This document shows, in pieces, positions 18,212 through 41,576 of a stretch of 64,000 bases of DNA. Source of the stretch: Calditrichales bacterium (GTDB lineage Bacteria; Calditrichota; Calditrichia; Calditrichales; J004). The notes below the pieces were generated by a model. The model saw only the letters and a program-made list of their open reading frames with translations. It searched no databases and was not told where the DNA came from. The DNA is taken from NCBI GenBank assembly GCA_965267575.1, contig OZ254086.1, positions 512,001 to 576,000 of the forward strand, read 5' to 3'. A program made the position numbers and the translations under genes. Every line of letters starts with the position of its first letter. Position 1 is the first letter of the stretch.

Positions 18212-18243
18212 ACATAATAAATCCAAATTAGGGGGAGGTTTTT

Positions 18244-19557: not shown

Positions 19558-19566
19558 GAAAGGCGA

Positions 19567-23442: not shown

Positions 23443-25092
23443 TTACTCCCTCTCAAAAACAATTTCCCCGCCAACTACCGTCATCAGCACATTTACATCA
23501 CGTATTGTTTCCGGCGCTATCTCAAACAGGTTTTGATCCAGCATAACGAAATCGGCCAGTTTGCCCTTTTCCAGGCTGCCAAGGCGGTCCTCATCGCGAG
23601 CAGCATAGGCGGCATTGATGGTGTGGGCCTGAAGCGCCTGCTCTACGCTGATCTTTTGCTGCGGCAGCCAACCGCCGGGATTCTTATCGTCCAGTGTACG
23701 ACGCGTAACGGCGGCATAGATCGTCTCCAGCGGTATGGGCGGCGCCACAAACCAGTCGCTGCCAAAAGCCAGTTTTGCGCCTCCATCCAGCAGGCTTTTC
23801 CAGGCAAACGATCCTTCAAGCTGCTTGTCGCTTAAAATCTTACCTGCCCAGCGCCCGTCATCGATGGCGTGATATGGCTGCACGCTGGCAATTACGCCAA
23901 GTTCTCCAAAACGCCCTGAATCAGCGGAGCCCACATGCTGGGCATGTTCTATGCGCATGCGCCTGTCACGCGGCGGATTTTCCTGCTGCACCTGCTCAAA
24001 AATATCCAGCAAAATGTGAATAGCACGGTCACCGATGGCGTGGATTACCGGCTGCAGCCCGGCGCGGTCACCGGCCATAATCCAGTCGCGCATGTTCGTT
24101 GTGTCGTTTACAAACAGACCCGTATTGTCGGGTTTACCCCGGTAAGCGTCAAAAAAAGCGGCCGTTTGCGAACCGAGGGAGCCATCCATAAAACCTTTTA
24201 AGCCTCCCCAGTGCAGCCATTCGTCACCGGAACCGTTTTCCGCCACAAACTGCTCCAGTCGCTGCCAGCCCAAAAGTGGCACGGAGGCGTAGATGCGCGT
24301 TTTCAGCAAACCTTTTTCCTGGGCGCGGCGGAAAAAATGCAGCTGGTCCCAGGAGCCCATATGATGCACCGCCGTTACGCCGTGGGAAGCGACATAATTC
24401 ATGGCGGCTTTCAATGCGCGCTCGCGGTCCTCTTCCGTCGGGTTCGGTACGTGTGGCCAGATCAGGTCCATGGCGTTATCCTTTAATACGCCGGTTAAAG
24501 CGCCGTTCTTGTCGCGCACGATTGTTCCGCCCTCCACGTCGGGTGTTTGGGTGGTAACACCGGCCAGTTGCAAAGCGAGGCTGTTGGCCAGGGCCATATG
24601 TCCGTCGAGACGGCTTACAAAAACGGGGTGCTCCGGCGTCAGGCTGTCGATCCAAATGCGGTTGGGCAATTCGCCGCCCCAGCGTTCATGGTCCCAGTCA
24701 CCCCCGGTAATCCAGGTGCCGGGCGGTACGGTTTTGGCAAAATCCGCAATGCGTTTGCTGAATTCTTCTGGTGTTGCCGCGTCGCGTAGCTGCACCGAGG
24801 CCAGACGAAACCCGCCTTCCATAAAGTGTACGTGGCTGTCAATAAAACCGGGCAGCAGCATCCGGTCCTGCGCCTCGATAATACGCGTACTGTCAGTTAT
24901 CAGCGCGGAAATCTCTTCGTTGCTGCCCAGGGCGATTATGCTGTCACCACTCAAAGCCATGGCCTGCGCCTGCGGCTGCTGTGGGTTGCCCGTCCATATA
25001 TTGGCGCTTAAAACAACCAGGTCCGCTTTTTGACCCATTGTGCATCCTCCAACTGCTAAAGCAATCGCTAAAAAAAGAAAAGAAACACGCAT
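23443..25092 (-). CDS. Amidohydrolase family 3 (YtcJ-like) lipoprotein
   Basis: Start MRVSF after AAGGAGG; lipobox VGGC; PGFIDSHVH, DGHMALANS, KGFMDGSLG, HAIGDRA, RIEHAQ, FGSDW. Confidence 0.9.
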   Translation of the reverse strand: MRVSFLFLAIALAVGGCTMGQKADLVVLSANIWTGNPQQPQAQAMALSGDSIIALGSNEEISALITDSTRIIEAQDRMLLPGFIDSHVHFMEGGFRLASVQLRDAATPEEFSKRIADFAKTVPPGTWITGGDWDHERWGGELPNRIWIDSLTPEHPVFVSRLDGHMALANSLALQLAGVTTQTPDVEGGTIVRDKNGALTGVLKDNAMDLIWPHVPNPTEEDRERALKAAMNYVASHGVTAVHHMGSWDQLHFFRRAQEKGLLKTRIYASVPLLGWQRLEQFVAENGSGDEWLHWGGLKGFMDGSLGSQTAAFFDAYRGKPDNTGLFVNDTTNMRDWIMAGDRAGLQPVIHAIGDRAIHILLDIFEQVQQENPPRDRRMRIEHAQHVGSADSGRFGELGVIASVQPYHAIDDGRWAGKILSDKQLEGSFAWKSLLDGGAKLAFGSDWFVAPPIPLETIYAAVTRRTLDDKNPGGWLPQQKISVEQALQAHTINAAYAARDEDRLGSLEKGKLADFVMLDQNLFEIAPETIRDVNVLMTVVGGEIVFERE

Positions 25093-25232
25093 AACGGCCT
25101 CCTTTTCCGGCAAATTAGAGCCGCTTACGAAACGGTGCAAGCCTGTAGTGTATCGGGATTGTTTTTTAATATGTAACGATCGTATTATACCTGAGCTCTT
25201 GTTTGCTGAACACAAACCCAGGGGAGGTCATT

Positions 25233-25722: not shown

Positions 25723-25798
25723 ATTTACCGCGCCATAACCGGGGATGATACTAAACATTATTTTTGTATCTTTTGCCGTATTAAAAAACAGGTTGGAT

Positions 25799-26701
25799 AT
25801 GTCTCATAATCACAGTCATTCGCACACGCCTGAAACCAGGGATTTTAATAAAGCCTTTATTATCGGTATTGCGCTGAATATAATCTACATCGTTGTAGAA
25901 GTTACTTACGGGATACTTGTTGATTCGCTGGCCCTGATTGCAGATGCCGGCCACAACCTGAGTGATGTGCTTGGACTGATTCTGGCCTGGGCCGCGAGTT
26001 ACCTGGTCAAAAAATCGGCAACGGATAAATACACCTACGGATTTAAAAAGTCATCGGTGCTGGCTGCGTTTTTAAACGCCATGATTTTGCTGGTGGCCAT
26101 CGGCGTCATTATTTGGGAAGCCATCAACCGGTTCTCCGAGCCGCGTGAAATCCCGGGCACGACCATTATGATCGTAGCCGGAGTCGGTGTTGTAATAAAC
26201 GCGGTGACAGCATGGCTTTTCTTCTCGGGAAGAAAGCATGATCTAAACATCAAAGGCGCTTTTATGCATATGGCGGCTGACGCCGGTATCTCTCTGGGTG
26301 TTGTAATGGTGGGCCTGATCCTGACCTTTACGAATCTGTATTGGCTGGACCCCGTGGTAAGTATTGTCATCGCCCTGATAATTTTCTGGGGTACATGGGA
26401 CCTGCTTAAAGATTCCACCAGCCTCGCCCTGGACGCTGTGCCCAGGGATGTTGATAAAGAGGGCGTGGAAAATTATCTGGACTCTCTTCCCGAGATTGAC
26501 GGCTTTCACGATCTGCACATCTGGGCGATGAGCACAACCGAAACGGCCATGACGGTGCACGTGGTGGTACCTAAAAAAGATGACAGGAACAAACTTATCA
26601 CAAAAATCAGCACTGATCTTCGCGAAAAGTTTGGTATTGTCCATACCACAATCCAGACAGAAGATGCCGGCGAGGAAGAGTGCACCCAAAATCCAATTTA
26701 G
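25799..26701 (+). CDS. Cation diffusion facilitator (CzcD/ZitB-type Zn/Co/Cd efflux)
   Basis: His-rich N-terminus MSHNHSHSH; SLALIADAGHNLSD, HMAAD, HDLHIW, HTTIQ. Confidence 0.93.
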   Translation: MSHNHSHSHTPETRDFNKAFIIGIALNIIYIVVEVTYGILVDSLALIADAGHNLSDVLGLILAWAASYLVKKSATDKYTYGFKKSSVLAAFLNAMILLVAIGVIIWEAINRFSEPREIPGTTIMIVAGVGVVINAVTAWLFFSGRKHDLNIKGAFMHMAADAGISLGVVMVGLILTFTNLYWLDPVVSIVIALIIFWGTWDLLKDSTSLALDAVPRDVDKEGVENYLDSLPEIDGFHDLHIWAMSTTETAMTVHVVVPKKDDRNKLITKISTDLREKFGIVHTTIQTEDAGEEECTQNPI

Positions 26702-26716
26702 CGTGGCGGGAAAATC

Positions 26717-27565
26717 TTAGTCACCCGCAAAGGTGTATTGCATGTTTTTGATTTTTCCCCGCCAGTAAGGTAAGCGACCTTGGGGCAGCAGCCAGGCCAC
26801 CTCTCCTTCCGTTGGCACCAGCATGCCGGCGTGTTCCTCATAGGCCCACCATCGTCCTTCCCATGGAACCGGAATAGATTTGCCATCCACGGTTCTGTCG
26901 CGCTGCGCCGCCGAGACGCGTTCCAGCAGATCATCCCCGTTGAAGTGGAAGGTAAGTGTTACTTCATTGAGGCCATCTTGAAAAACACATTTGGCAGATG
27001 TGCTGTCTATTGGCTGCCAGGATAGACCGTTGCCCGGTAATAATACGGTGGGATAGAGCGGCGCCTCAGCCACAAAACGCATCAGTTCGCCGCGGGCAAT
27101 TTCCGCTGTGCCGCGCATTTCCATAACCGTGAATAAGCCAAGCAGCGAGGCTTCCAGGATGCCCTCACCGGCTACGTAAGCATCGTGCACATAAACGGAT
27201 AAACCCGGCATCATGTTGATCTTCGCGTTCCAGACAAAGCCGGGCCGCGATGCCGTTACAGTTTGATCAGCGGAGAAAGGCTTCCACTGCTCGTCTTCCT
27301 GCGACATATTGAATGTGCCGCTTTGCTGCAAATTGAGCGAGGCTACAATCGGCTGACCGCTTTTGAGCACTTTGCCAAGATAGCGTTTCACCGGCTTGGG
27401 CAGCGAATCTGTCATCGATGAGTCATACGCTGAGCGGGTGTTTTGTTGAAGCGATTGGTCAAGCGTTTGAAAAAGCTCCGCGCTTTGGCTCTTCCAGCGC
27501 TGCGTGCCATACAGCACAAAAGTGGCAACAATCACAATCAGAATAAGAAGAATTTTCCACCACAT
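26717..27565 (-). CDS. Conserved membrane-anchored hypothetical protein (DUF6544/DUF6920-like)
   Basis: N-terminal TM; LPKPVKRY, PGFVWNA, GELMRFVAEAPLYPTVLLP, VPTEGEVAW. Confidence 0.7.
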   Translation of the reverse strand: MWWKILLILIVIVATFVLYGTQRWKSQSAELFQTLDQSLQQNTRSAYDSSMTDSLPKPVKRYLGKVLKSGQPIVASLNLQQSGTFNMSQEDEQWKPFSADQTVTASRPGFVWNAKINMMPGLSVYVHDAYVAGEGILEASLLGLFTVMEMRGTAEIARGELMRFVAEAPLYPTVLLPGNGLSWQPIDSTSAKCVFQDGLNEVTLTFHFNGDDLLERVSAAQRDRTVDGKSIPVPWEGRWWAYEEHAGMLVPTEGEVAWLLPQGRLPYWRGKIKNMQYTFAGD

Positions 27566-27887: not shown

Positions 27888-30800
27888 TTAGTGCGATTCA
27901 TATCCTTTCAACCCGCCTTTGGGCACAATTAATTTGAACGCATCGCTATTGAATTCAATCATCTTGCCCTGCACATTAAGGTATTCCGAGCCGTTCTTTT
28001 TGTACAACGGAATATTGGACAGGTCAAACATCTCGCGCAGGCGCGGCCGGAAATAATCCCATGTTTCATCGTCGATTGCTTCCACTTTGCCGTGCGTGTA
28101 CTGGGCTTCGAGCAGGCGTTCCTCAGGATCAAAAAACAGGAAGCGTCCGCGTGAGGCGCCACCCAGCATTTTGGTTCCCAGGTATGGCCGCTCATTAAAG
28201 TTTAGCCGGCCCTTCTTGTTAAAATGCAAACCGCTAAAGATAAACTGGCCGCCCATCAGCGATTCGCCGGCATACTTGGTGGCAGACCCAAGAATGGTCA
28301 CTTCCAGCGGCTGGCAGCGGCTGTCATTTACGGAGTTGGTCCAGCAGCGGTCGACCACGTTGCCCATAATGAACACCTTGCCGCCTTTGCTGGCATACCC
28401 GCACACTTTGCCGGCGTTGCCAAAGATATAGAGGTTGCCGTGATGCATGCACATAGCCGTAAAGTTCTGCGCGTTGCCGTGCAGGCGTATCGTACCGCCC
28501 TGCATGAAGGCGCCAAAATATTCACCCACCGAGCCGTAGACGTCCATTTCCACATCATCGGTGTTGCCTCTGCCCATTACCGCCGTGGAGATAAGACGCT
28601 GGCCGTGCAGCTTGAAAAGGATGAATCGCCGCCAGCCCAATTCATAGGCGCGGTTCAGAAAGGAAGCCAGCACAAAATCGGGATCGCTGCCCTCCGGCAG
28701 AAAACCCCTGGCATTTACGATCAGTGTTTCATCCTTCGCGGGCTTTTCGTTGAAGGTTACCCCCTGCTCCATGCTGAAATAGCGATAGCCGCGGTAGTCA
28801 TGCTTCGCCGCCCGTTGCAGCAACCTGTTTATATAATACTGCGCCATATCCTGCAATGAGCTGATCGCCTTTTCGCCGGGATCAAGCGTGCACAGATAAT
28901 CACGCAGCCAGGTGAGAATTTCCAGGTTGCGCATAAAAAGGCGGGCGTTTTCCGTTCCATCAACGAGCTGATGCAACAGCCAGTGCAGATCGTTGAAGCT
29001 GAGCGCGGCCAGGTTCTTGGTCATAAAACTGCGGTGATTGTCTTCCCAGCCGCTGAAGTCTTCCTGTGGTTTGTTGAGGATACGGGCACGGCGCACGCTG
29101 TAGTGCAGACCCGCTTCATCCAGTTGCATGCGGTTTCCGTAGCGGTCACAGAATTCGTAATCGTGGATTTTGCTTTTCTCGTCAAAACGGTAGCGGCTGA
29201 TCATGCCGGGGCTGACCGTCGTATGGTCGGCCATTGCGCCATCGATAAGGCCCTCTTTGTCCATCAGGTGAAGCATACGCTGTACCGCCTGCTCTTCCGA
29301 AGCGATCATCGTAAAAGCACGCTTTTTACCGTTGTTCTGATCATGCCAGAATGCGGTCACGTTGGGCCGCAGGTCTGCCGGATCCTTAATGTCCACGCGT
29401 TCGCTGACTTTGCGGTAGGGATCGTGGCGCAGGCACAGGTACTGGTAAGGTCCGTCCGGCGAGCTGGCAAATTCCACGCGCTGCACCGCTTCAAGCTGGG
29501 CGCGCAGTTTTTCATCCACGAGCTCAAGGTCATCGCCGGTGGTAGGTGAAAGACTCTCGAAAATAGCCCAGTCCGGATAACCCCACTCATCAGCGATCAA
29601 ATGGAATTTCAGCGCTGCCACCTCGGTATCGGTACTGGCAAGCGGGTAAAGATTAAACTGCTCCACACGTTGTTTGAGCGCCTCGAAATTGGTGGTTTCC
29701 CCGTTGTGCGTAAGTGCCGTATGCAGCTTGGCAAACGGATGCGAATTCATCTGTTCCACGACGGAGCCGGTGGCCAGACGCACGTGGATGATGTTGTTGG
29801 GCGCATCAGGCGTCTGCCAGGGGATCACGCGGCCGGCCGTTTTCCAGGTGGCGAAGTTTTTGCCGCAACTCATCACCGCGGCAATCTTGTAACTGCGGTC
29901 TTTGTAAAGCTGGCGGTTGCGCTCGTAGGGATAGGTGTTAATAAAGCGGCGCAGGTTGGTCAGCTCCTCTTCGCTGACATTGCCGTCATGGTGCGCGGGA
30001 TGGCCGTCGTCTCCCATCAGGGATGTATCCGCGGCTTCGGAAACATACAAAACCCGCGTCAGGTTCAGTGAATGATCAAAGACATAAAGGTCTTCCGCTT
30101 TTTGAATAAACTCTTCCGACTTTTCATAATTTTCTTTGGTCACATCCGGGAACTGGTGCTCCAGGAATTTTGACCAGTCGTATTTGAGCAGCGTTTTCTC
30201 AATATAATTGTGAACAGCCTCTTTTTTGGCGCGCACAAAGAAACGGAAAATATCACCGGGATCCGTATCGGGATTGCCGAACTCGCGGTAATCCATTTCA
30301 TTGCCCTGTTCATCGCGCTTGTAGGCATCGCGGGCCATCTCCACGCGCGTTTCGCCCACATAGTCAAAATAGGGGTCAAGAAAAACTTTTTTGATTCTTT
30401 CCATCAGCCGGGAGCGCATGAACAGCGTCATCTTGCGCGCTTCTTTGCGCAGATCGTCTTCGCTGAAATCCTGGCCGCTTGTTTGCCACTGCAGGCGCAG
30501 ATTGTTTTCGATCTCCCTCTGTTGTACGCCCTTAACCATAATGCTGTAGGCATAAGCGTCGGGATACTCCGGGAAGCAGAGGGTTTTGGCGATGCCGACG
30601 CCGTCCATGCCGCGGTTTCGCATGGCCTCCAGCGCTTTGTCCAGAATGTAACCCGGAATGGGTTCGGTGCCGTTTACCGCCGCGACACCGCAGTTACTCT
30701 GACCCGTTTCATGTTCCAGGCGTTGCAGAAACAGCTCTTCATCCTTCATGATCGCTTTCTGGATTTCCTTGTTGATGCGGAAGCGGTGGTCCACGCGCTC

Positions 30801-33800
30801 CTTCAGGCCGATCCAGTGGATTTTATCAAAGCGCCCGCGCAGCTCACGGATATCTTTCATGCCCAGCGCCGCCAGCGCGCGCATCACCTGCATCTGCATC
30901 ATGATAAAGGCGTTGATCATCTGCCGCGTGTTGCTGTCCACGTCGCGCAGTTTTTGCATGGTGAGATTGCTGGTGGCAATACCACGGCTGCAGCCGTCGT
31001 GACAGTTGCGGTTGCGGTCGCAGCCCACGCTCACCAGCGAAGCCGTTCCCCAGATAACGCCGTCAGCGCCCAAGGCTACCGCCTTAACCACATCTTCGTA
31101 GGTGCGGATACCGCCGGAGACGACGAACTTGACGTTATTGCGCAGCCCGTCGCGCACCAGCCGGTTGTGGATCAGCGGAATGGCGTATTCCAGGTGCATA
31201 CCCATCTGGCCTTTGATGATGTTAGGGGATGCGCCGGTGCCGCCACGAGGACCATCCAGCCAGACTTCAATCTTCATGCCGTGCTTTTTGGCGTATTCGC
31301 GAATTTCCTGTGAACGCTCGTGGTCTTTGGTGGTGCCGAATTTGGCGCGCACGATTTCATCGGTGTTGTCGCGCGCGATACGAGCCAGGCCGGCGGCAAT
31401 AAACTCAATGTCGATCGACGGTGACACCTTGACAGAAATAACCGCCCCGGGATTGATCATGTGCACCACATCGATGAACGCTTTTACATCTTCAATGGAA
31501 TAGCAGTTGTGGAAGGGAAACGGCGATATAATGCTGCTGTAGCTATGTTTCACCACCGATTCGCAGGCCTGGATAATGTTTTCAAAATCGATTTCGTCAA
31601 TGCTTTTTTCACCGTAAAGGCGATAGACCTCATCCTGGATAGCCAGCAGCGTTTCCTTCAGCTCATCGCTGACGGCGCCTTCCTGCTGCAGCGCGTCCAG
31701 CTTGCGGATGTGCGCCTCAGCCGCCTTTTTCAGGGCATGCTCTTTCTGCTTGCTGATATGGATCAGCCGCTTGATCAGTTTTTCCAGCTGGCTGTTGTCC
31801 AGCTGCTCCAGTCCCTCCACACCACGCAGGTAGGAGACCAGCTTGTTTACCTTTTGTGCCAGGATATGCCCGCCAATACCCATTTTGGCCCCTTGCGAAT
31901 AGGCGATCACCACGCGGCGCGCCTTGCGGATGGTCTGCTTACTGACGCCAAACAGGCCGGTCTTCAGCTCGGTGGAGACAAACGGCTCGTCTTCCTTGTC
32001 AATCACCACCATGAAGGTGACAGGCTTCAGCGCCGGATAACTGGCAATCTTTTCAAATAATTGCGGGTGTTTCTGCTCGCTGATGCCGTTTTCCTTCAGC
32101 CGGCGGCGTATTTCATCCACGCTGCAGCTTTCACCGTCCTCAAACAACGGCGCAATCAGCTCGATCTCTTCTTCATTAAAGAACACCGGCTGGCCTTTGG
32201 AGTCCAGAAACATGCGCGTCGGGTAACCGCCTTCGCCGGTGTCGTACTGGATGCCCAGTTCGCGGGCGGCCACCACATGGGCGCGCCAGCTGTCCAGGCC
32301 AATAGAGCCGACGGATTTGCCGCCAAACATCCACGGTGCTTCCAGGACCAGGTCCTTGTCCAGCGGCAGCGCGCACTGCACCTCATCCAGCTCGCTCTCC
32401 TCCACATCCATCGGGTCTTTGTTGTAGAGAATTTTCATCACATCGAAACCGTCGCCCAGCAGGCCGGTCTGTTTCACCTTGTTGAGGTCCAGCATGCTGA
32501 GATCCCCGGCGCCCATACGGCCCATTGATTCAATCAGCATTCCGGGCCAGACGTAATCGCGCTTGTAGAGGGTCTGGTTGGTTTGCCCCAGCAGGTAAAA
32601 ATTATGTGGAATCTCCAGCGGCACGATCTGTTTTTTAAGCTGCGAGTAGCGGCGAATCGATTTTTCTGGAATGTTTTCATTGGCCAGTTGCGCCGCATTT
32701 ACCGCGGCGTAGGTGTCGATCCAGCTCTCTTTTTCAAACACGTTGCGTTGCAGCCGGTTTTCCAGCGCGTGGAAGTCGATCAATCGGCCTTCTTCGCCCA
32801 CGGTCTTTTTGATGTCTTTAAAGCCCGAAGCACCCAGCACCTCGAGGATCTGCACCTTGCGTGATTCAGCCTGGTTGTTCAGCCGTTTGACCGCCTTCTC
32901 CAGATCGAGGCTGAGCAGCTTCTCGGTGGTTGCTTTATCCTCTTTGATGGCGCGGTAAGTCGATGGGTCCAGCGCCAGCAACGCCGCGAAATCGATCAGG
33001 GTCGCCTCCGCCCCGCGCTGGATGGTCTTTTGCGAATCAGAGGCCAGGCGGATACCGCCGGAAGCGATCAGGCTCACTTCATGGCGCCGCCCGATGCGCA
33101 TCAAATAGTGGTGGATGGCGCGCACGGCGCTGCTGGTAACGAAATATTCGTCCTTGTTGCGCTTGCCGTGGATATGCAGCACATCGATGTTCTGATCCAG
33201 AAAATGGTTGACCATCTCTTTTATTTTCACCGTCGGGCTAAGTGAGCCGATCAGGTCATACTCCGATACCTCGACATAACCGGCAATCAGCGGCAGCGTT
33301 TGTCCGCTGGATTTAACGGAATCGCGAATGTAGGAAATGGTGCGCCCGATGTCCTTGTGATACTCCACCTCAAACATGGGCATGCGCCACAGGTCGGTGA
33401 GCAGCTCGCGGTTGGTGCGCGGGTTTACCTGCAGCCGGTCAATAAGCTCGTGGTCTGCGCGCGGCACCAGTACAGCCGGTAGTTTGTCGTAGTCGCCCTC
33501 GCGCAGGAAGGTGTTGTAATTTTGCAGGATACGCTCCAGCGGTACCACCACGAGGCTTTTCTGCTTTTCGGCCACCTTGATCAGCGCCAGCTCCGCCCGT
33601 CCGTTGCTCTCCAGGCGCAGAGCGTTGTACAGGATCGGCGTCATCAGCTTGATCGTGCGGTGGTCGTTGGGGATCAGGTTTTCCTGCTTGTCGAAACGGC
33701 AATAACTGTCACGCTTACCCAGGATCACGGAAAGCTCTTCCTCGGGATCGCCCTCGTGCAGGCGATTCTGCGCCGGCCCCACGATATGAAAATGAGCAAA

Positions 33801-36494
33801 ACGCTCGGCGTCAAAACCGATACCCATGTGGCGGTCACCCTGGCCCATGCCGCTCACCGGGATCTGCCCCGTGGAAGCTTCTTTATCGATTTCCATGATG
33901 ATATCTTCGGTGACGTACTTGTCGGCCATGTCGGTCAGCTTTGTGCTGCGGTGCACGGTAGTCGTATCATGAATGCGGCTCTGGCGGTTTACCCAGTAGC
34001 GCTTTTCTTCAAGGTCGGTGGCGTTGTAAATAAAATTATCAATGTACGATCGCTCTTCCTGGGCGACTTTGTTTTGCGGGCAGTAGTTGACGCAGGCATT
34101 GCACAGCGCGCAATTCAGATCGAGCAATTCCGGGATTTCACGCGGTTTGCCGTGGCGGGCGCCGTACATGCAGGCGTTCTCGTCGCTGCACATGCCACAA
34201 TGGATACAGGTTTTGGGGTCGATGTAAAGCTGGCCGTATTCGAATCCGCGCGGGTAAACAATATTTAAACCATGCTGCAGGTGCGAGCGGTTGTCTTTCT
34301 GCTCGCTGTGCGTGTGCTCCGTATACAGCGGGCTTTCTTTCATGATCTGCCAGAAGCGCTCGATGTATTCGGCCTTTTCTTTTTGCTCAAGACCCAGCGC
34401 GCGCACAAAACGATTGTCTTCCTCGACCATGTCAAACAGACGGGTGAGCGGGATATCCGTGGGACAGACACGCACGCAGTTATCGCAGCGGGTGCAGGCC
34501 AGAAAACCAAGCGCCTCCTCGCGTGAGATGCTTTCACCTTCCACCAGGCGCTGCGCTGTTTTGCGGCGTGTTATCGGCGTGGCCGGACCGTACATGCCAA
34601 ACACATCGCTGGTGGGACACACCCGCTCGCAGCTGTCACATTCGGCGCAGGGCGAAATGACGCTTTCCAGCGTTTCCGTGCGCTGCTTCTTCAAATCGCT
34701 GGGAACAACCCGCGGCACAAAAAAGCTGCTGACGTTCCAGGCCAGGCGCTGCAGGGGATAAGAGATAAGGTTCTTTTTGCCCTGCTGACGTTTATGGGTA
34801 GTGCGGACAAACCAGCCGTTTAAGGCCGGTGTCAGCGACGAAAACAATCGGAACGCCAAACGCCGCCCGCGCGGATGGAAATATTTGCCGCGGTTAAGCA
34901 GCAAGCCCGGGTCCCAGCTCCGTTTCAGGCGCAGCAGGTCGCGCACAAGGTTGCCGGTAACGCGTTTCCAGCGTTTAAAAAAGGGATAATTCCAAAGGCC
35001 GATGCCGTAGGGGATGGCGCCGAAAAACTGCGCGGCCTGGGTCATCAAAGGCACCAGCCCGAAGTAAATTTTGTGGCGCAGCGTGCGCGTATCGGCCAGC
35101 ACGATGGATTGGATCAGCATGCGCCCTTCCTGCAGCAGGTGGCCTTCGCTTTTCAGATCGATGCCGAGCAGGCGCTGCAGCAGCTGGCGGGTCATGTTCT
35201 GGTAGCCGACGAAGGATTCCAGCGGCAGGATTGTTTCGCTTACCAGCATGGACGGGCCGCTCTGCTTCATCTGCACCGGCAGGAAGCGGTGTTCCCATAG
35301 CTTGTGTGAAAGCTCGGTGGAAAGCTGGCGGAACAGCAACTGCTCCACGCGGATATTTTCGCCGGCGCCGGCAAACAGCCGTGTTTTTAACGCCGCTTCA
35401 AAATCTTCCTGCGCGTCAAAATGCAGCACGAGAATATGGGCGCAGCCTTCCAGCTCACGGATGGTGCGTTTGTCGTCCTGCAGCTCGTTCAGCCGTTTTT
35501 GATCGTTGATCTCCAGGGCCTGGCGGGCGTCGTTTTCATTATGCTTGCGCTCGATGCGCGCGGTTTCGGCGATATAAGCCCTGTCAAAATAGATGACCGA
35601 GGTGGGCCGGATGCGGCGCTGACGCAGGCGCTCAATGTAGGAGGCCACGTCTTCGCTGCGTTCAAAGGAAAAGGCGTAGGGTTTGGAAACAAAAGACTCG
35701 CGGCGCACCTTGAGCGCGCCACCCACGACGATACCAAGTTGCCCTTCGGAGTTGAACAGCGCGTCAAATTCGCCGTCGCGGGGCAGCAGGGTCAGCAATT
35801 GACCGTCCGGCTTTACCACCAGCAGCATTTCCACGGAATCGCGCACGGGGCCGTATTTGTAGCTGCCCAGCCCCAGTCCGCCGGTTACTATCCAGCCGGC
35901 AATTGTGCCGCTGTGCGGATTGGTGATCTCCTGGCACAGGGTGTAGCCTGCCTGTTTCAGAAAGTCGCGCGCTTTGGGAAAAAGCAATCCGGCGCCAAAA
36001 AGCAGGGTGTCGTTATCTTCATCGAGCCGTTTAAAGTCCAGCCCGGAGAGATCGAGCACGATGTCATCGTCCAGCGGGACGCAGCCGCCAAAAGGCCAGG
36101 TACCGGCTCCGCGCACGGTGTAAGAAAGCTTATTCTGCGCGGCATAGCGCACAAAGGCTTGCACGTCTTCCACGCAACCCGGACGCAGTACAAAGGATAA
36201 ACGCACGTTAAGCAGCAAATCCTTTACAAAACCGGGGATGATGTGCGTGCCCGTGTCGTTTTCGTAAACCATTTTCTGCACGGCGTTGGGCAGAAAGATT
36301 TCCGCGCCTTCGGACAATTCCGCGGCAAGCGCCTCCATATATTTGCGGAAGCGCGATGCTTTGCCGGACGCCACAGAGTGGTCTTCAAAAAGAAGGGCGC
36401 GCGCTTTGCGCTGGCTGTTTATGCGTGATGTGATGTTTTGGTTAAGAAAAAAATCGCGGTACTGCTCGAACAGTTCGGGGCCGGGCTGGGTCAT
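27888..36494 (-). CDS. 2868-aa multidomain glutamate-synthase-related oxidoreductase: FAD-linked oxidase, two 2x[4Fe-4S] modules, degenerate FMN barrel, GltB FMN barrel, class II glutamine amidotransferase, GXGXG
   Basis: TVRGAGT..GG and WDPGLLLNRGK (FAD oxidase); CAECDSCERVCP/CTRCDNCVRVCP; CIHCGMC/CALCNACVNYCP; DTGEGG, SQGAKMGIGG, DGPRGGTGA, SGGIRT, CDRNRNCHDGC; NCGVAA, HVRLAT, HPF, HNGE, DTE; GxxG beta-helix repeats. Confidence 0.9.
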   Translation of the reverse strand: MTQPGPELFEQYRDFFLNQNITSRINSQRKARALLFEDHSVASGKASRFRKYMEALAAELSEGAEIFLPNAVQKMVYENDTGTHIIPGFVKDLLLNVRLSFVLRPGCVEDVQAFVRYAAQNKLSYTVRGAGTWPFGGCVPLDDDIVLDLSGLDFKRLDEDNDTLLFGAGLLFPKARDFLKQAGYTLCQEITNPHSGTIAGWIVTGGLGLGSYKYGPVRDSVEMLLVVKPDGQLLTLLPRDGEFDALFNSEGQLGIVVGGALKVRRESFVSKPYAFSFERSEDVASYIERLRQRRIRPTSVIYFDRAYIAETARIERKHNENDARQALEINDQKRLNELQDDKRTIRELEGCAHILVLHFDAQEDFEAALKTRLFAGAGENIRVEQLLFRQLSTELSHKLWEHRFLPVQMKQSGPSMLVSETILPLESFVGYQNMTRQLLQRLLGIDLKSEGHLLQEGRMLIQSIVLADTRTLRHKIYFGLVPLMTQAAQFFGAIPYGIGLWNYPFFKRWKRVTGNLVRDLLRLKRSWDPGLLLNRGKYFHPRGRRLAFRLFSSLTPALNGWFVRTTHKRQQGKKNLISYPLQRLAWNVSSFFVPRVVPSDLKKQRTETLESVISPCAECDSCERVCPTSDVFGMYGPATPITRRKTAQRLVEGESISREEALGFLACTRCDNCVRVCPTDIPLTRLFDMVEEDNRFVRALGLEQKEKAEYIERFWQIMKESPLYTEHTHSEQKDNRSHLQHGLNIVYPRGFEYGQLYIDPKTCIHCGMCSDENACMYGARHGKPREIPELLDLNCALCNACVNYCPQNKVAQEERSYIDNFIYNATDLEEKRYWVNRQSRIHDTTTVHRSTKLTDMADKYVTEDIIMEIDKEASTGQIPVSGMGQGDRHMGIGFDAERFAHFHIVGPAQNRLHEGDPEEELSVILGKRDSYCRFDKQENLIPNDHRTIKLMTPILYNALRLESNGRAELALIKVAEKQKSLVVVPLERILQNYNTFLREGDYDKLPAVLVPRADHELIDRLQVNPRTNRELLTDLWRMPMFEVEYHKDIGRTISYIRDSVKSSGQTLPLIAGYVEVSEYDLIGSLSPTVKIKEMVNHFLDQNIDVLHIHGKRNKDEYFVTSSAVRAIHHYLMRIGRRHEVSLIASGGIRLASDSQKTIQRGAEATLIDFAALLALDPSTYRAIKEDKATTEKLLSLDLEKAVKRLNNQAESRKVQILEVLGASGFKDIKKTVGEEGRLIDFHALENRLQRNVFEKESWIDTYAAVNAAQLANENIPEKSIRRYSQLKKQIVPLEIPHNFYLLGQTNQTLYKRDYVWPGMLIESMGRMGAGDLSMLDLNKVKQTGLLGDGFDVMKILYNKDPMDVEESELDEVQCALPLDKDLVLEAPWMFGGKSVGSIGLDSWRAHVVAARELGIQYDTGEGGYPTRMFLDSKGQPVFFNEEEIELIAPLFEDGESCSVDEIRRRLKENGISEQKHPQLFEKIASYPALKPVTFMVVIDKEDEPFVSTELKTGLFGVSKQTIRKARRVVIAYSQGAKMGIGGHILAQKVNKLVSYLRGVEGLEQLDNSQLEKLIKRLIHISKQKEHALKKAAEAHIRKLDALQQEGAVSDELKETLLAIQDEVYRLYGEKSIDEIDFENIIQACESVVKHSYSSIISPFPFHNCYSIEDVKAFIDVVHMINPGAVISVKVSPSIDIEFIAAGLARIARDNTDEIVRAKFGTTKDHERSQEIREYAKKHGMKIEVWLDGPRGGTGASPNIIKGQMGMHLEYAIPLIHNRLVRDGLRNNVKFVVSGGIRTYEDVVKAVALGADGVIWGTASLVSVGCDRNRNCHDGCSRGIATSNLTMQKLRDVDSNTRQMINAFIMMQMQVMRALAALGMKDIRELRGRFDKIHWIGLKERVDHRFRINKEIQKAIMKDEELFLQRLEHETGQSNCGVAAVNGTEPIPGYILDKALEAMRNRGMDGVGIAKTLCFPEYPDAYAYSIMVKGVQQREIENNLRLQWQTSGQDFSEDDLRKEARKMTLFMRSRLMERIKKVFLDPYFDYVGETRVEMARDAYKRDEQGNEMDYREFGNPDTDPGDIFRFFVRAKKEAVHNYIEKTLLKYDWSKFLEHQFPDVTKENYEKSEEFIQKAEDLYVFDHSLNLTRVLYVSEAADTSLMGDDGHPAHHDGNVSEEELTNLRRFINTYPYERNRQLYKDRSYKIAAVMSCGKNFATWKTAGRVIPWQTPDAPNNIIHVRLATGSVVEQMNSHPFAKLHTALTHNGETTNFEALKQRVEQFNLYPLASTDTEVAALKFHLIADEWGYPDWAIFESLSPTTGDDLELVDEKLRAQLEAVQRVEFASSPDGPYQYLCLRHDPYRKVSERVDIKDPADLRPNVTAFWHDQNNGKKRAFTMIASEEQAVQRMLHLMDKEGLIDGAMADHTTVSPGMISRYRFDEKSKIHDYEFCDRYGNRMQLDEAGLHYSVRRARILNKPQEDFSGWEDNHRSFMTKNLAALSFNDLHWLLHQLVDGTENARLFMRNLEILTWLRDYLCTLDPGEKAISSLQDMAQYYINRLLQRAAKHDYRGYRYFSMEQGVTFNEKPAKDETLIVNARGFLPEGSDPDFVLASFLNRAYELGWRRFILFKLHGQRLISTAVMGRGNTDDVEMDVYGSVGEYFGAFMQGGTIRLHGNAQNFTAMCMHHGNLYIFGNAGKVCGYASKGGKVFIMGNVVDRCWTNSVNDSRCQPLEVTILGSATKYAGESLMGGQFIFSGLHFNKKGRLNFNERPYLGTKMLGGASRGRFLFFDPEERLLEAQYTHGKVEAIDDETWDYFRPRLREMFDLSNIPLYKKNGSEYLNVQGKMIEFNSDAFKLIVPKGGLKGYESH

Positions 36495-36652
36495 AAGGCT
36501 GATCCTTTTGGTCGCGTAAAGCCATTAATATAATACCCGAATCGGCAGCATGTGTGACAAAGTTGAAAAACGGTGCGGATAATCTGCGGTGATGGAGTGA
36601 AAGTATATGCCGGTCTGTTTCAGGCCGCCCACAGGGATAAAAGCATTCGCCT

Positions 36653-36924: not shown

Positions 36925-36956
36925 CAAAAAAGCCCCCGGCTAAACCCGGGGGCCTT
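36925..36956 (-). terminator. Intrinsic terminator of the secreted-protein pair
   Basis: aaaaaa-gcccccgg-ctaaac-ccgggggc on the plus strand. Confidence 0.75.
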
Positions 36957-37016: not shown

Positions 37017-38072
37017 TTATTTTACAAGAAGCATGCGTTTGGCCTGGGTAAAACGCTTGCCGCTTTCCATGCCCGTGGCGCTGATGCGGTAAATATAAAT
37101 TCCACTTGGTAACGTGCCGCCGTCAAAAGTGGCATAATGCCAGCCCTGCTCCTGCGACTTCTTCACCACAACGGAAACCTTACGCCCGCTGACGTCAAAC
37201 ACCTCCAGCGTAACCGCGCTGGCTTCCGGCAAGGCATAGCTTATTTGTGTTGTGGGGTTGAAGGGGTTGGGATGGTTGGCTGCAAGAGCAAAATCATTTA
37301 TAGAAATATTTTGCAAAGCTATTGATTCGCCCCAACTCGATAGTGGTTCACCCTGTACTTTTATTGATACTGTGCTCGAATGGCTGGATTCATTATCCTG
37401 GTAATCAACTGCGGTTACCCGGTAATCAACGTCATACTGGTTTGCGGCAGGTTCGCCGGCCACCTCTTCTTCGGTGTCTTCGTACGAAGTACTGGTCGTA
37501 GTCGCTAGGTATGAAAAATTCGGATAGCTGTCGGGGTCTCTTTTATAAACCTTATAGTGCTGCAAATCTGCGGCTTCACTGGCATCCCAGCTAATCAAAG
37601 GGTGATTATTTACACTTGATGTCACCAACGGCGAAGTAGGCGATTGTGGACTATGGGAATCATTAACGGAAAAATAATAATAAGAGGATTGGTCGGAGGC
37701 TGTTACGCATATAGCCAAGACTTTTACGCGATAATTGCCGTTACCATTGTCGGCAATTGCGTTTATATCTGTATAAGCATCATAATGAACCTGTCCATAG
37801 AATGGCGTTTGAGGCTCAAAAAACCGATTGTCAATTGCCCCTGAAGCAGCATTAACCCAGCCAGAGCCATCATTATATTCCACATCAAGCTCCATATAAG
37901 CAGGAGCTCCGGAGTAATGAGCATCCTGAAGATACCCATCCACATATACTTCTACGGCATTAAAATCATTAAAAGAGCTATAAATGTATACATTCTGTAT
38001 AACTGCGTCCGCTGATTCTCCATCAGCATATAAAAATCCGATTAATACAAAAAAAATAAAAAATCTATACAT
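37017..38072 (-). CDS. Secreted protein with a fibronectin-III-like module and a C-terminal Por/FlgD-type sorting domain
   Basis: Signal peptide; PLISWD..DLQHYKVYK...YRVTAVDYQDNES (FN3); NHPNPFNPTTQISY...SGIYIYRI...KRMLLVK. Confidence 0.82.
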   Translation of the reverse strand: MYRFFIFFVLIGFLYADGESADAVIQNVYIYSSFNDFNAVEVYVDGYLQDAHYSGAPAYMELDVEYNDGSGWVNAASGAIDNRFFEPQTPFYGQVHYDAYTDINAIADNGNGNYRVKVLAICVTASDQSSYYYFSVNDSHSPQSPTSPLVTSSVNNHPLISWDASEAADLQHYKVYKRDPDSYPNFSYLATTTSTSYEDTEEEVAGEPAANQYDVDYRVTAVDYQDNESSHSSTVSIKVQGEPLSSWGESIALQNISINDFALAANHPNPFNPTTQISYALPEASAVTLEVFDVSGRKVSVVVKKSQEQGWHYATFDGGTLPSGIYIYRISATGMESGKRFTQAKRMLLVK

Positions 38073-38096
38073 AAATCCTCTTTTGAGTTGAGTTGG

Positions 38097-40118
38097 TCAT
38101 TTTATATATAAAGCTTTTGATATCTTATAAAAGTCTTTTCCTTTTATTACGACAAAGTATGTACCTGCTGAGAAATTGCCGTTGTAGTTACTTAGATCCA
38201 AATTTAAACTATGTTCACCGGCAAAGTTGAAGCTGAGATCGTCTCGAACCAATTGCTGGCCATTGATATTATATATATATAAAAACAATACTTGCGGCTG
38301 AGACAAAGTAAAATTTATTTTTGTTGCAGAGTTAAATGGGTTAGGGAAAACATGCAATTTTTTATCTTGTTGCGTTTGTACTTCATGATCTTCAATAGAA
38401 ACCGCTGCATCATAATAAAAAGCTGGAAAAACAAATCCTTCAAGGCTATTCCCATATTGATCAATAAATTCATATTTTATGTGGTAAAAACCAGTCATGA
38501 GATCAGGTACTTGAGAGACGTAAAAACCCTGGTGCTTAAATAAATTCACTTCCCTCCATTCCATTGATTCTTCGTGTTTTAAATATAGTGCACTCTTGAA
38601 AATACCATATTCGTCGTCAGCCAAAATCCTAATATTATTTTCCTCTGAGCTTTTTAGATAGGCGGACAATTGACCATTAGAAGTAATTTGAAATGCGCTT
38701 ATAAACGGTGGGTTCTTATCTGGTACAGTTGTATTAAAATCGGCACTTACGCTACATATACCTGCTTTTCCAAAAACTTCATTCTTATAATGAATACACT
38801 CTAGATCATAGACACCCGGTCCATAACCAAATTCCAAAGAATCACTATCTACTCCTATTATCTTGTACCAAAATAAATCTCTCCCCCATGTACTCTTTTC
38901 AATAAGTTCATCATTTTTCTTTAGAGAATAGAAAAATGGAGAAACATTAAGATCGTCGTTTGTTTGGGAAAGAAACATATAATTGCCGTACCCAACATGG
39001 GCATGTGGGGCGCGAATAATAATGCTATCTGTAGAATTAAAAAAACGACCATTCCAGAATGTTGGCGTTAGGCCATACTTAAAACCCTCTTTGGGAATCG
39101 CATAGACATCGTTTTCATCTGTTCCATATTTTAAATAGATATGCTCAGCACCATAGTATGATTTGACGGTTCTGTATTCATAATCAAACGCCGTATTTAA
39201 CCAATGTGTCATTTTTGAGGTTAGTAAATTTCTAGAAGCAAGGGTGTCCTGAACAATATCTAACGTAACAGGCACTTTTATCGTCCCGTCATTAGGATAA
39301 TAGTGCCCGGATGGATAAGCTATTGAAACCTGAGCATTTGGAGATTCTTCTAATATCGAATCCGGTACGTGAAAGCTGATTTCTGCTTCTGAATAGTGGA
39401 TAGGGTCGTTTGATATGAGACTATCATCCGGATTTGACTTCAGAGGACCATTAAGCAAATAGATTTTATTATCATTAAATGGGCGCTTTCCTTTTACCGA
39501 CCATGTATTTTCAAGATAATCAGGGAAATTATTGTAAAAAAGATAAAAGGCGCTGCTGTCAAGAGAGTAATCAGACAATCCGAATCCAGACGTATGAGTA
39601 TGTACGAAAAAAAATTGCATAGAATTGATCCTTAAATCAGAGCCGTCTTTTCTAACTAAAGAAATTTTTTTATAAAGATCCGCCTCATTCAGGGAAAAGG
39701 AAATTTCTGCTTCAGTTATATTTTTTTTATAAAGAATCATTTCCTTATGTTTTGACAGTTGCAGACCAGTCATAATATCAAACGTGTCTAAACCAACAGG
39801 AATAATAAAACTATTGGAGGGTTCGCTAACAAAAGTATCTGTTCCCACATTGTTAAAAATCCATATAAACTCCATATTAAAATCCGCCTCTACAAAAATT
39901 GCCCTTTTTGTTGCACCTGGCAACATTTCTCCTAAATGAAAATGCTTAGGACGATTTTTTGCAAATTGGGGGTATAATGATTGAGCAAAAACCGATAAAA
40001 AGAATAAGACGTAAATAAGAAGCTTTTTCGTCAGCAAATACTCACAATATATTTTCCTGGTAGGCCAATATTGCATGTACGCTATTACTGAAAGTATAAT
40101 ATTTGCCTCCCAAGCCAT
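38097..40118 (-). CDS. AT-rich secreted protein with a C-terminal Por/FlgD-type sorting domain
   Basis: 673-codon ORF; signal-like KKLLIYVLFFLSVFAQS suggests the true start may be the TTG at 40037; VFPNPFNSATKINF...YNINGQ...SAGTYFV. Confidence 0.75.
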   Translation of the reverse strand: MAWEANIILSVIAYMQYWPTRKIYCEYLLTKKLLIYVLFFLSVFAQSLYPQFAKNRPKHFHLGEMLPGATKRAIFVEADFNMEFIWIFNNVGTDTFVSEPSNSFIIPVGLDTFDIMTGLQLSKHKEMILYKKNITEAEISFSLNEADLYKKISLVRKDGSDLRINSMQFFFVHTHTSGFGLSDYSLDSSAFYLFYNNFPDYLENTWSVKGKRPFNDNKIYLLNGPLKSNPDDSLISNDPIHYSEAEISFHVPDSILEESPNAQVSIAYPSGHYYPNDGTIKVPVTLDIVQDTLASRNLLTSKMTHWLNTAFDYEYRTVKSYYGAEHIYLKYGTDENDVYAIPKEGFKYGLTPTFWNGRFFNSTDSIIIRAPHAHVGYGNYMFLSQTNDDLNVSPFFYSLKKNDELIEKSTWGRDLFWYKIIGVDSDSLEFGYGPGVYDLECIHYKNEVFGKAGICSVSADFNTTVPDKNPPFISAFQITSNGQLSAYLKSSEENNIRILADDEYGIFKSALYLKHEESMEWREVNLFKHQGFYVSQVPDLMTGFYHIKYEFIDQYGNSLEGFVFPAFYYDAAVSIEDHEVQTQQDKKLHVFPNPFNSATKINFTLSQPQVLFLYIYNINGQQLVRDDLSFNFAGEHSLNLDLSNYNGNFSAGTYFVVIKGKDFYKISKALYIK

Positions 40119-40442: not shown

Positions 40443-41576
40443 CTACTTCTGTAACTGCTTTACCATATCTTTTTTCTCCCAGGTAAACTCGGCCAGCTCG
40501 CGGCCAAAGTGTCCGTAGGCGGCGGTTTTGCGGTAAATGGGTCGGCGCAGTTGCAGCGCCTCAATAATCCCCGCGGGAGTAAAGTCGAACAACTTGCCGA
40601 TCTTGTCGGCCAGTTCTTCATCGGGCACTTTGCCGGTGCCAAAAGTATCCACCAGCAGCGAAACCGGTTCGGAGACACCGATGGCGTAGGCCACCTGCAA
40701 GCCGCATTTGTCGGCCAGCCCGGCTGCCACAATATTTTTGGCCACATAACGGGCGTAATAAGCCGCGGAACGATCCACCTTTGTGGGGTCTTTGCCGCTA
40801 AAGGCGCCACCGCCGTGGCTGTACATGCCACCGTAGGTGTCCACGATGATCTTTCGGCCGGTCAGCCCGGCATCACCCTGCGGCCCGCCGATCACAAAAC
40901 GCCCCGTGGGGTTGATGAAATAATCCACCTTGCCATCCACCAGCAGCTCCTCGGGAATTACCGGCCTGATCACTTTTTCGATAATGCCGTTGCGCAGATC
41001 GTCGTTGCTTACCGTGTCGCTGTGCTGGGTTGATACGACTACTTTTTCCACGCCGACGGGCTTGCCGTCACGGTAGCGAACAGCCACCTGGGCTTTGCCG
41101 TCCGGGCGCAGAAAATCGAGAATGCCTTTTTTGCGTGTTTCGGCCAGCCGGGCGGTCAGCTTGTGTGCCAGGCTGATCGGCATGGGCATCAGCTCAGGTG
41201 TTTCATTACAGGCGTAGCCAAACATCATGCCCTGGTCGCCGGCGCCGGCGCGGTCTACACCCATGGCAATATCGGGTGATTGCTGATCGATGGTGGTCAT
41301 GACGGCGCAGGTGGCGTAATCGAATCCGAACTCCGCTTTTGTATAGCCGATATCTTTGATTACTTCGCGCACCAGGGTGGGGATATCCACGTAGCATTCC
41401 GTAGTAATTTCCCCGCCTATCAGAGCCAGTCCGGTGTTGACAAATGTTTCGCAGGCCACGCGGCCAAAGGGATCATTTTTTAAGACTTCATCAAGAACCG
41501 CGTCCGAGATCTGATCCGCTACTTTGTCCGGATGTCCCTCGGTGACCGATTCTGAAGAAAACAGATATTCATTCAT
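40443..41576 (-). CDS. metK: S-adenosylmethionine synthetase
   Basis: [47 protein letters not shown]. Confidence 0.99.

Follow-up and report, generated by a model that had tools for sequence, protein, structure and literature searches.

Domain organisation of the megaprotein

The stretch of DNA considered here, referred to as the window, comprises 64,000 nucleotides (nt) from a Calditrichales bacterium (assembly GCA_965267575.1, contig OZ254086.1, positions 512,001 to 576,000), whose genome consists of one contig of 4.73 Mb and is 98% complete. On the minus strand of the window, positions 27888..36494 form a single open frame of 2868 codons and a stop codon, with zero internal stops. Its product, P0001 or the megaprotein, has full-length relatives and is discussed here as a putative glutamate synthase (glutamine:2-oxoglutarate amidotransferase, GOGAT) that would carry its own reductase module.

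Domains were called by Pfam on the whole protein of 2868 amino acids (aa) and on six overlapping pieces of it; the features described in this section all lie on the minus strand. The N-terminal part consists of a flavin adenine dinucleotide (FAD) domain of the FAD_binding_4 (PCMH) type (residues 101-236, 35787..36194; PF01565, 97 bits) and a cap resembling FAD-oxidase_C (residues 274-537, 34884..35675; PF02913, 26.3 bits against a cut-off of 21.2). They are followed by a first 2x[4Fe-4S] domain of the GlcF/Fer4_8/Fer4_17 type with two CxxCxxCxxxCP motifs (residues 614-681, 34452..34655) and by a second 2x[4Fe-4S] domain of the ferredoxin type (residues 757-807, 34074..34226). The four cysteine motifs comprise residues 616/619/622/626, 667/670/673/677, 763/766/769/775, and 795/798/801/805. 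Next come two barrels. The first one (residues 855-1290, 32625..33932) contains a weak Glu_synthase match at residues 1123-1225 (24.6 bits, cut-off 20.4), which corresponds to the part that a preliminary description of this DNA had called "FMN-barrel-like". The second one is the Glu_synthase barrel for flavin mononucleotide (FMN), located at residues 1375-1905 (30780..32372). It matches PF01645 with about 200-215 bits in three stretches ending at residue 1879, has inserts at about 1430-1500 and 1561-1654, and carries a 3Fe-4S-type triad C-x5-C-x3-C at Cys1825/1831/1835.

A variable linker (residues 1906-1934, 30693..30779) ending in (S/T)(N/D) stands right before Cys1935 (codon 30690..30692), the predicted nucleophile of a class-II, N-terminal nucleophile (Ntn) glutamine amidotransferase. 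This domain extends from residue 1935 to about residue 2450 (29145..30692), has an insert of ~270 aa after its first strand, and matches GATase_6 at residues 2234-2305 (34.9 bits). The C-terminal part is formed by GXGXG beta-helix repeats (residues 2644-2773, 28176..28565), with a PF01493 match from about residue 2644 (46.5 bits, cut-off 32.5) and a domain that continues to the C-terminus. In the PDB, the GXGXG region matches FwdC (1e-10) and residues 1298-1414 of the ferredoxin-dependent glutamate synthase (Fd-GltS) 1llw. The uninterrupted frame and the domain order given in the preliminary description are thereby borne out. Behind the FAD and Fe-S domains, the order is central-like barrel, FMN barrel, amidotransferase, and GXGXG, which differs from the canonical order amidotransferase, central, FMN, and GXGXG. 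Relative to the canonical GltB core, only the amidotransferase appears to have moved.

Recurrence and conservation of the fused frame

A homologue search across 5.8 billion proteins yielded 212 matches, 120 of which were listed. Among these 120, 71 other cluster representatives have a length of 2786-2992 aa and share 53-74% identity at 96-100% query coverage, 35 representatives are 2503-2559 aa long with 42-44% identity, and 13 shorter ones are mostly labelled partial. The homologues bear no database names other than "FAD-binding protein" or "glutamate synthase-related protein". Furthermore, a scan of one genome per species revealed 70 loci. Because 42 of them, all in other genomes, contain an uninterrupted frame of at least 2500 codons, the full architecture recurs far beyond chance. 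The preliminary description had suggested such a search for the architecture elsewhere, and the 71 listed representatives and 42 open loci are its outcome. According to database records, the hosts belong to Calditrichota, KSB1, Zhuqueibacterota, Krumholzibacteriia, Vulcanimicrobiota, and Syntrophaceae-type metagenome-assembled genomes. When shorter proteins were sought with residues 1-860, most matches proved to be family members truncated at contig ends; only two distant stand-alone relatives, P0137 and P0138, were obtained.

The family comprises a long clade, to which P0001 belongs, and a short clade, which has the same domains without the inserts at about 301-350, 800-850, 1561-1654, and 2151-2200. 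Invariance was assessed in an alignment of 48 full-length members, 38 of the long and 10 of the short clade. The 16 cluster cysteines and Cys1825/1831/1835 are invariant in all 48 sequences. The same applies to the FAD-binding motifs RGAGTWPFGG (128-137), GT..GW..TGG.G.G (196-210), and EG..G (250-254), and to the FMN-barrel motifs SQGAK.G.GGH (1533-1543), SPFPFHN (1657-1663), DGPRGGTGA (1747-1755), and GG.RT (1794-1798). In the amidotransferase, Cys1935-G-V-A-A, NRG..G.G, H.R2239.ATG, H-N2264-G-E, and T-D2289-T are likewise invariant.

The putative glutamate synthase core

A profile of residues 845-1932 aligns in HMMER to the glutamate synthases (GltS) 7mfm, 2vdc, 1ea0, 6s6s, and 1llw with E-values of 1e-36 to 1e-33, the alignments to 7mfm and 2vdc ranging from 1e-36 to 1e-34. 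In these alignments, the three 3Fe-4S cysteines and the motifs QGAK.G.GG, SP.P.H, and GGTGA are in register. Residues of about 1074-1165 align weakly to the central domain of Bacillus subtilis GltA (580-677), with an E-value of 0.36 for this stretch within the 1e-36 match. The C-terminal third of the first barrel is related to the FMN barrel (hhalign 96.8%, E 2.9e-10, 128 columns). It keeps the motif SGGIR..D..K..GA, as ASGGIR, and has lost the 3Fe-4S cysteines. The first barrel therefore looks paralogous to the FMN barrel and seems to correspond to the central domain of GltS. Unlike the canonical central domain, in which the FMN-phosphate-type SGGIR motif is lost, it retains this motif, and it may accommodate an additional flavin or provide a second active site. 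Its start is formed by the block IPVSGMGQGDRHMGIGFDAERF.HFHIVGPAQNRLHEG at residues 876-914 (about 33753-33869, minus strand), which has 26 invariant positions, is among the most conserved stretches of P0001, and lacks a counterpart in solved GltS.

Within the host genome, PF01645 matches only the megaprotein gene and that of inosine monophosphate (IMP) dehydrogenase. The latter, a weak Glu_synthase match, was considered as a second GOGAT and rejected. PF04898, the canonical GltB central domain, has zero matches in this genome. GltD is absent genome-wide, the best match to TIGR01317 scoring 48.7 bits against a cut-off of 447.7, so that the absence of gltD noted for the vicinity in the preliminary description holds for the whole genome. 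There is one glutamine synthetase frame of 727 aa, a length typical of type III glutamine synthetase, and there are two glutamate dehydrogenase genes.

Split and permuted forms, gene neighbourhoods, and phyletic spread

Seven loci were retrieved with the stand-alone FAD/Fe-S protein P0137, and five of them contain split versions, whose search had also been proposed, in the form of three collinear same-strand genes. Gene 1 encodes the FAD domain, the cap, and the dicluster (600-785 aa, matching megaprotein residues 55-691), gene 2 the ferredoxin domain, the first barrel, and Glu_synthase (about 970-1100 aa, matching 763-1902), and gene 3 the amidotransferase and GXGXG (about 900 aa, matching 1932-2859). 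In L088 and L091, the ATG of gene 3 overlaps the stop codon of gene 2 and lies 40 and 43 codons before the cysteine. Because the split form is collinear with the megaprotein, the latter can be read as a fused three-subunit enzyme. The interrupted relatives L046, L053, L061, L062, and L076 were also considered as natural splits and ruled out, as their frameshifts lie at scattered positions.

The giant proteins P0146 (3016 aa) and P0255 (2508 aa) have the same domain set and order. P0159 (3152 aa) differs in order, with amidotransferase, GXGXG, FAD domain, and FMN barrel. Since the same domain set thus occurs in independent arrangements, its parts probably work together as a functional unit. In P0159, the cysteine is found at about residue 79, a PYG-type FAD domain at residues 1284-1732, then a ferredoxin domain and the FMN barrel at about 2530-2890. 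Its N-terminus contains a hydrophobic stretch resembling a signal or anchor.

Gene neighbourhoods were surveyed at 54 long-clade and 7 short-clade loci, with genes grouped by clustering and Pfam annotation of representatives. In the short clade, glnA is located directly upstream on the same strand at all seven loci, with gaps of 12-196 nt and one glnA cut by a contig end. Downstream, carA and carB are present in five of the six loci with downstream DNA, while L082 has a different gene, and amtB, a PII gene, and glnD are found further upstream in L079-L081. Four of the seven loci (L079, L081, L083, L086) contain a gene for an ABM (antibiotic biosynthesis monooxygenase-like) protein of 95-98 aa between the megaprotein gene and carA. 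A search of five short-clade genomes, whose completeness is not given, yielded no canonical GltB central domain.

The phyletic survey covered 86 genomes of the phylum, which are kin and not independent, and many of which are incomplete. Among them, the megaprotein is present in 33 and the canonical GltB central domain in 29. The two coexist in 6 genomes; 27 contain only the megaprotein, 23 contain only the canonical form, and 30 lack both. Genus g4 includes two genomes with the megaprotein and no canonical GltB, and one genome with the opposite pattern. Numerous members of the phylum, including the carriers G032, G035, G038, G061, G066, and G068, have an extra frame of 500-610 aa that consists of the Glu_synthase barrel only (E 1e-83 to 1e-92); none occurs in G000.

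The amidotransferase and its internal nucleophile

The core of the amidotransferase aligns to GlmS 1xff and to PurF. The register of Cys1935 equals that of the class-II amidotransferases GlmS and PurF of the same genome: GlmS begins with M-CGIVG...LEYRGYDSAGIA, PurF has an 11-residue leader followed by CGVAG...LQHRGQESAGIA, and P0001 reads ...TGQSN-CGVAAVNG...MRNRGMDGVGIA around the nucleophile. The PurF gene (L096) lies at C1:4204076-4205401 on the minus strand, and its leader before the catalytic cysteine is MDNLLDKPKEF. The preliminary description had placed the amidotransferase correctly and had overlooked that its nucleophile is internal.

The ~30 residues ahead of Cys1935 vary in length and sequence; their last two residues are (S/T)N in long-clade members and SD in short-clade members. 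In the split operons, where the amidotransferase is a subunit of its own, the linker 1906-1934 has its counterpart in a leader of 40-43 aa. When residues 1925-2868 were used to scan 1.84 billion representatives, stand-alone amidotransferase-GXGXG proteins of 787-894 aa and amidotransferase-only proteins of 495-648 aa were found. Eleven of the stand-alone amidotransferases were aligned, and in 9 of them the alignment reaches the cysteine, which lies within EGGCGV and is preceded by 8 to about 40 leader residues.

Maturation of PurF and GltB involves removal of a propeptide, and penicillin acylase and gamma-glutamyltranspeptidase are self-processing Ntn hydrolases that remain as two chains. Ntn hydrolases are described as being synthesised in the form of inactive, self-activating precursors (PMC9140057). 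B. subtilis GltA, composed of Ntn-amidotransferase, central, synthase, and GXGXG domains, is reported to be inactive as a C1A mutant (bioRxiv 10.1101/2021.04.12.439528). Because the PurF of the host carries its 11-residue leader, at least one class-II amidotransferase of this organism must be processed. Given the self-activation of Ntn hydrolases and the propeptide removal in PurF and GltB, self-cleavage at Asn1934|Cys1935 is proposed, at about even odds. It would yield chains of about 1934 and 934 residues. The internal position of Cys1935 raises a question of processing that is larger than the question of the electron donor.

The FAD module and the electron donor

Among solved structures, LctD (7qh2_C, E 6e-29) is the best match to the FAD domain; D-lactate dehydrogenase (D-LDH), glycolate oxidase, and D-2-hydroxyglutarate dehydrogenase (D-2-HGDH) also match. 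The cap keeps W400..R403, K410, and H452. Residues 495-499 read PYGIG, and a profile alignment places Tyr496 on the histidine of the GEHGIG motif of LctD, which confirms the replacement of the GEHG-type histidine motif pointed out in the preliminary description. Tyr496-Gly-x-Gly-x-Trp-Asn is invariant in 48 of 48 sequences. In the same alignment, W400/R403 fall on VWSAR and His452 on the first histidine of GHAGDGNLH, with nothing on the second histidine; the alignment of the cap to LctD is weak (5.4 bits), and its register also leans on motif spacing.

The PYG motif is common to all glutamate-synthase-linked relatives examined (P0146, P0255, P0159, P0137, P0138), and for this reason it seems to mark a flavoprotein lineage dedicated to glutamate synthase partners. 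P0159 additionally lacks an equivalent of His452. As the flavin precedes one-electron clusters, a hydride donor is likely, and where a cell has only one GOGAT, its reductant should be available at all times. First in the ranking of candidate donors, with a chance that stays below even, is a general reductant of the cell, for example reduced nicotinamide adenine dinucleotide (phosphate), NAD(P)H. FAD_binding_4 proteins such as MurB use NADPH. A small organic substrate of another kind, ranked second, is a tentative option, and a protein partner such as electron-transferring flavoprotein (ETF), flavodoxin, or ferredoxin comes third and is rather unlikely.

Ranked last, as a doubtful option, is a canonical D-2-hydroxy acid. 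According to this alternative, the N-terminal FAD domain oxidises D-lactate, glycolate, or D-2-hydroxyglutarate and thereby drives the glutamate synthase, and in the D-2-hydroxyglutarate version one reaction could provide both 2-oxoglutarate and the electrons. The relationship to LctD, D-LDH, glycolate oxidase, and D-2-HGDH speaks for it, as does the arrangement of an FAD domain with a GlcF-type dicluster, which is the layout of GlcD/GlcF and YdiJ (NCBIfam matches). In addition, the lactate/pyruvate couple has a sufficiently low potential for driving the glutamate synthase reaction. The catalytic site argues otherwise. In human D-2-HGDH, Arg386, His434, His441, Glu475, and His476 bind metal and substrate, each is essential, and all five are strictly conserved in D-2-HGDH, D-LDH, and GlcD (PMC7801405). 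P0001 has counterparts only of two, Arg403 and His452; those of His441, Glu475, and His476 are gone, with Tyr496 at the position of the catalytic histidine and the second metal histidine absent. Since every glutamate-synthase-linked relative examined shares the PYG motif and P0159 lacks even His452, the loss is not confined to P0001. Furthermore, no linked lactate, glycolate, or 2-hydroxyglutarate genes occur at the 61 loci examined, which include the window, and a 2-hydroxy acid would hardly suit a sole GOGAT that should rely on an always-available reductant. The wiring to a 2-hydroxy acid such as D-2-hydroxyglutarate that the preliminary description had envisaged is thus not upheld, three of the five signature residues being missing here and in the relatives examined.

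Proposed function and alternative readings

P0001 is interpreted as a GltD-independent glutamate synthase fused from three subunits, with its own reductase module of FAD and 4x[4Fe-4S], and a probability of roughly 0.7 is assigned to this reading. In the proposed reaction, glutamine:2-oxoglutarate amidotransfer, module A (the PCMH/VAO-type FAD domain and the GlcF-like 2x[4Fe-4S] domain) would have its flavin reduced by a hydride donor and hand the two electrons on singly. It would thereby take the role of GltD, to which it is unrelated. Module B, comprising the ferredoxin-like 2x[4Fe-4S] domain, the central-like barrel, and the FMN barrel with [3Fe-4S], would convert 2-iminoglutarate to glutamate, assuming that electrons flow in this direction. 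In module C, the class-II amidotransferase would free ammonia from glutamine, the GXGXG beta-helix coming last. The chain would cleave itself between Asn1934 and Cys1935 and so free the nucleophile. The assignment as glutamate synthase is based on the status of the gene as the sole candidate in the genome, the glnA linkage in the short clade, the split form, and the phyletic pattern. From the self-sufficient GOGAT of the preliminary description, independence of GltD and the own FAD/Fe-S input are retained, in line with the sole Glu_synthase gene and the invariant motifs, while the 2-hydroxy acid wiring is not.

Several points weigh against this interpretation. The support from gene neighbourhoods comes from a sister clade of ~40% identity and not from the genome of P0001 itself. 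The 54 long-clade loci have no conserved neighbours from nitrogen metabolism, the commonest family being a hybrid sensor kinase at 10 of them. Phyletic complementarity is loose, as canonical GltB accompanies the gene in 6 of 33 carriers and both are missing from 30 of 86 genomes. Because two glutamate dehydrogenase genes are present, a GOGAT need not be essential here. No convincing sigma-54 site was found upstream of the P0001 gene (61 matches against 89 expected by chance). The nucleophile lies 1934 residues into the chain, and stand-alone relatives likewise carry conserved leaders of 8-43 aa, which may mean that this amidotransferase subfamily works unprocessed and in a different manner. 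Moreover, the cap aligns weakly to enzymes of solved structure, and the strongly conserved block 876-914 of the first barrel is without an assigned role.

In a wider form, the interpretation would place P0001 in a glutamate synthase class of its own, the fourth after those dependent on NADPH, NADH, and ferredoxin, with a PYG flavoprotein devoid of a 2-hydroxyacid site, a donor new to GOGAT, and self-cleavage at Asn1934|Cys1935. This combination is put forward tentatively and is considered possible rather than probable. If true, a 1934-residue redox enzyme would act as the "propeptide".

Another alternative holds that P0001 is not a glutamate synthase at all; it could be a glutamine-dependent reductive aminase of a different 2-oxo acid, or a non-redox relative of MgsABC/GlxBCD. 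Split glutamate-synthase-like domains do perform other chemistry in MgsABC, the amidotransferase is only weakly matched by Pfam (34.9 bits), and with its leaders and the insert of ~270 aa it represents a distinct subfamily. Nevertheless, QGAK.G.GG, SP.P.H, and GGTGA, which are common to solved GltS, are invariant, and an FAD and five Fe-S clusters would be pointless in a non-redox reaction. The linkage to glnA, amtB, the PII gene, and glnD in the short clade suits the cycle of glutamine synthetase and GOGAT, and no other candidate GOGAT exists in the genome. N-methylglutamate synthases of the MgsABC/GlxBCD group consist of three separate subunits, have no reductase module, and are linked to gmaS and mgd genes. 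Membership of P0001 in this group is disfavoured by its fusion to FAD and Fe-S modules and by the proximity of glnA in the short clade. This alternative is consequently regarded as improbable.

Still less credible is operation in the reverse direction in vivo, in which glutamate would be oxidised at the FMN, electrons would travel via the clusters to the FAD, and an acceptor would be reduced. Such catabolism would suit peptide fermenters, electrons could in principle run along the path either way, nitrogen assimilation is not reflected in the gene context of the long clade, and the genome contains glutamate dehydrogenase genes as well. It would, however, make no sense for a catabolic enzyme to keep an amidotransferase whose catalytic motifs are all invariant in 48 sequences, and the glnA linkage of the short clade likewise disagrees. 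That the fusion is an assembly or frame artefact has a negligible chance: five interrupted relatives exist, but their breaks are scattered with none at a domain border or at Cys1935, 42 independent loci keep the whole frame open, and the host genome is a single contig of 4.73 Mb.

Surroundings of the gene in the window

The megaprotein gene is preceded by a sigma-70-like promoter at 36530..36558 on the minus strand (9/12, 36 nt upstream of the ATG), which is a consensus match only, and the count of such sites in the region is not above that in shuffles. A strong terminator-like hairpin at 36929..36956 (minus strand; 11 pairs, 8 of them GC, with a T tail), also a consensus match only, is located after the upstream gene. 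Because this hairpin follows the upstream gene, the layout suggests that the P0001 gene is transcribed alone, in a monocistronic-looking arrangement.

The neighbours in the window are unrelated to nitrogen metabolism. They include two secreted proteins with type IX sorting tails (37017-40118) and metK (40443-41576) on one side, and a DUF6920 protein (26717-27565), a cation-efflux protein (25745-26701), and an amidohydrolase (23443-25215) on the other. The G+C content drops to 0.345 in 38001-40000, compared with about 0.50-0.55 elsewhere in the window. This dip covers an open reading frame at 38097..40118 (minus strand, 673 aa) in which Pfam recognises nothing but a type IX secretion sorting tail, and the DNA at 38001-40000 may have been acquired recently. 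The metK gene is found upstream of the megaprotein gene in 3 of the 54 long-clade loci, adjacent in L035 and L037 and 3.9 kb away in the window; this proximity probably reflects synteny among close relatives and not a functional link. Further away, a run of STAND-type NTPase genes extends over 15836-23318 on the plus strand. It encodes a 791-aa ATPase_2 protein with a long Gln/Ala-rich tail, an outer-membrane-like protein, a 355-aa nSTAND2 protein, and an 894-aa fusion of Ser/Thr kinase, adenylate/guanylate cyclase, and nSTAND2.

Relation to known systems and significance

GltB/GltD (Azospirillum 1ea0/2vdc/6s6s, B. subtilis 7mfm) and Fd-GltS (1llw/1ofd) share with P0001 the Cys, Arg, Asn-Gly, and Asp motifs of the class-II amidotransferase, the central-like barrel followed by an FMN barrel with 3Fe-4S triad, and the GXGXG beta-helix. 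The electron logic also resembles that of GltD, in which one flavin and two [4Fe-4S] clusters feed the 3Fe-4S cluster and the FMN. In contrast to GltB, the amidotransferase of P0001 is not N-terminal but follows the FMN barrel, and its cysteine is internal. Moreover, the genome lacks GltD, the predicted reductase is a PCMH/VAO-type FAD domain unrelated to GltD, and P0001 has four [4Fe-4S] sites, compared with two in GltB/GltD. Judged by its sequence, P0001 thus appears to depart from the canonical family in domain order, in the N-terminal nucleophile at gene level, and in the use of GltD or ferredoxin as donor.

Permuted and split glutamate synthases of the archaeal type are known in print. 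Igni408 of Ignicoccus is described as a GXGXG-ferredoxin-FMN protein with a separate GlxB-type amidotransferase (PMC2614490), and the Geobacter operon GSU1235-1239 lists a pyridine-nucleotide-disulphide oxidoreductase (PMC2725144). Such systems resemble P0001 in the ferredoxin dicluster directly before the FMN barrel, the separability of amidotransferase and GXGXG, and the non-canonical order. They have no FAD_binding_4 module, whereas P0001 combines one with a second barrel in a single chain. The D-2-hydroxyacid dehydrogenases (LctD of LctBCD, GlcD/GlcF, YdiJ, LDHD, and D-2-HGDH) share the succession of FAD_binding_4, FAD-oxidase_C, and a dicluster of the Fer4_8/Fer4_17 type. Unlike them, P0001 is without the CCG domain as well as the three signature residues, and its module would serve a glutamate synthase instead of quinone or ETF. 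As in self-processing Ntn hydrolases and in PurF and GltB, where a free N-terminus is needed in the mature enzyme, the nucleophile stands behind a leader; here, the "leader" would be a catalytic chain of 1934 residues. In a search of full-text literature, with supplements and subscription journals outside its coverage, no glutamate synthase linked to a FAD_binding_4/PCMH flavoprotein was found, and an earlier description of the enzyme type may exist.

Nitrogen enters biomass through glutamate synthase, whose known classes are each defined by the electron donor they use. The megaprotein family would represent a conserved form of GOGAT with a reductase module unrelated to GltD, and it is the sole GOGAT found in most of its hosts. 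This raises the question of which reductant drives nitrogen assimilation in these anaerobes. The family also offers a natural case for asking whether a class-II amidotransferase can work, or process itself, with its nucleophile 1934 residues into the chain. Taken together, the fused, split, and permuted forms provide material on how multi-centre redox enzymes are assembled by gene fusion.

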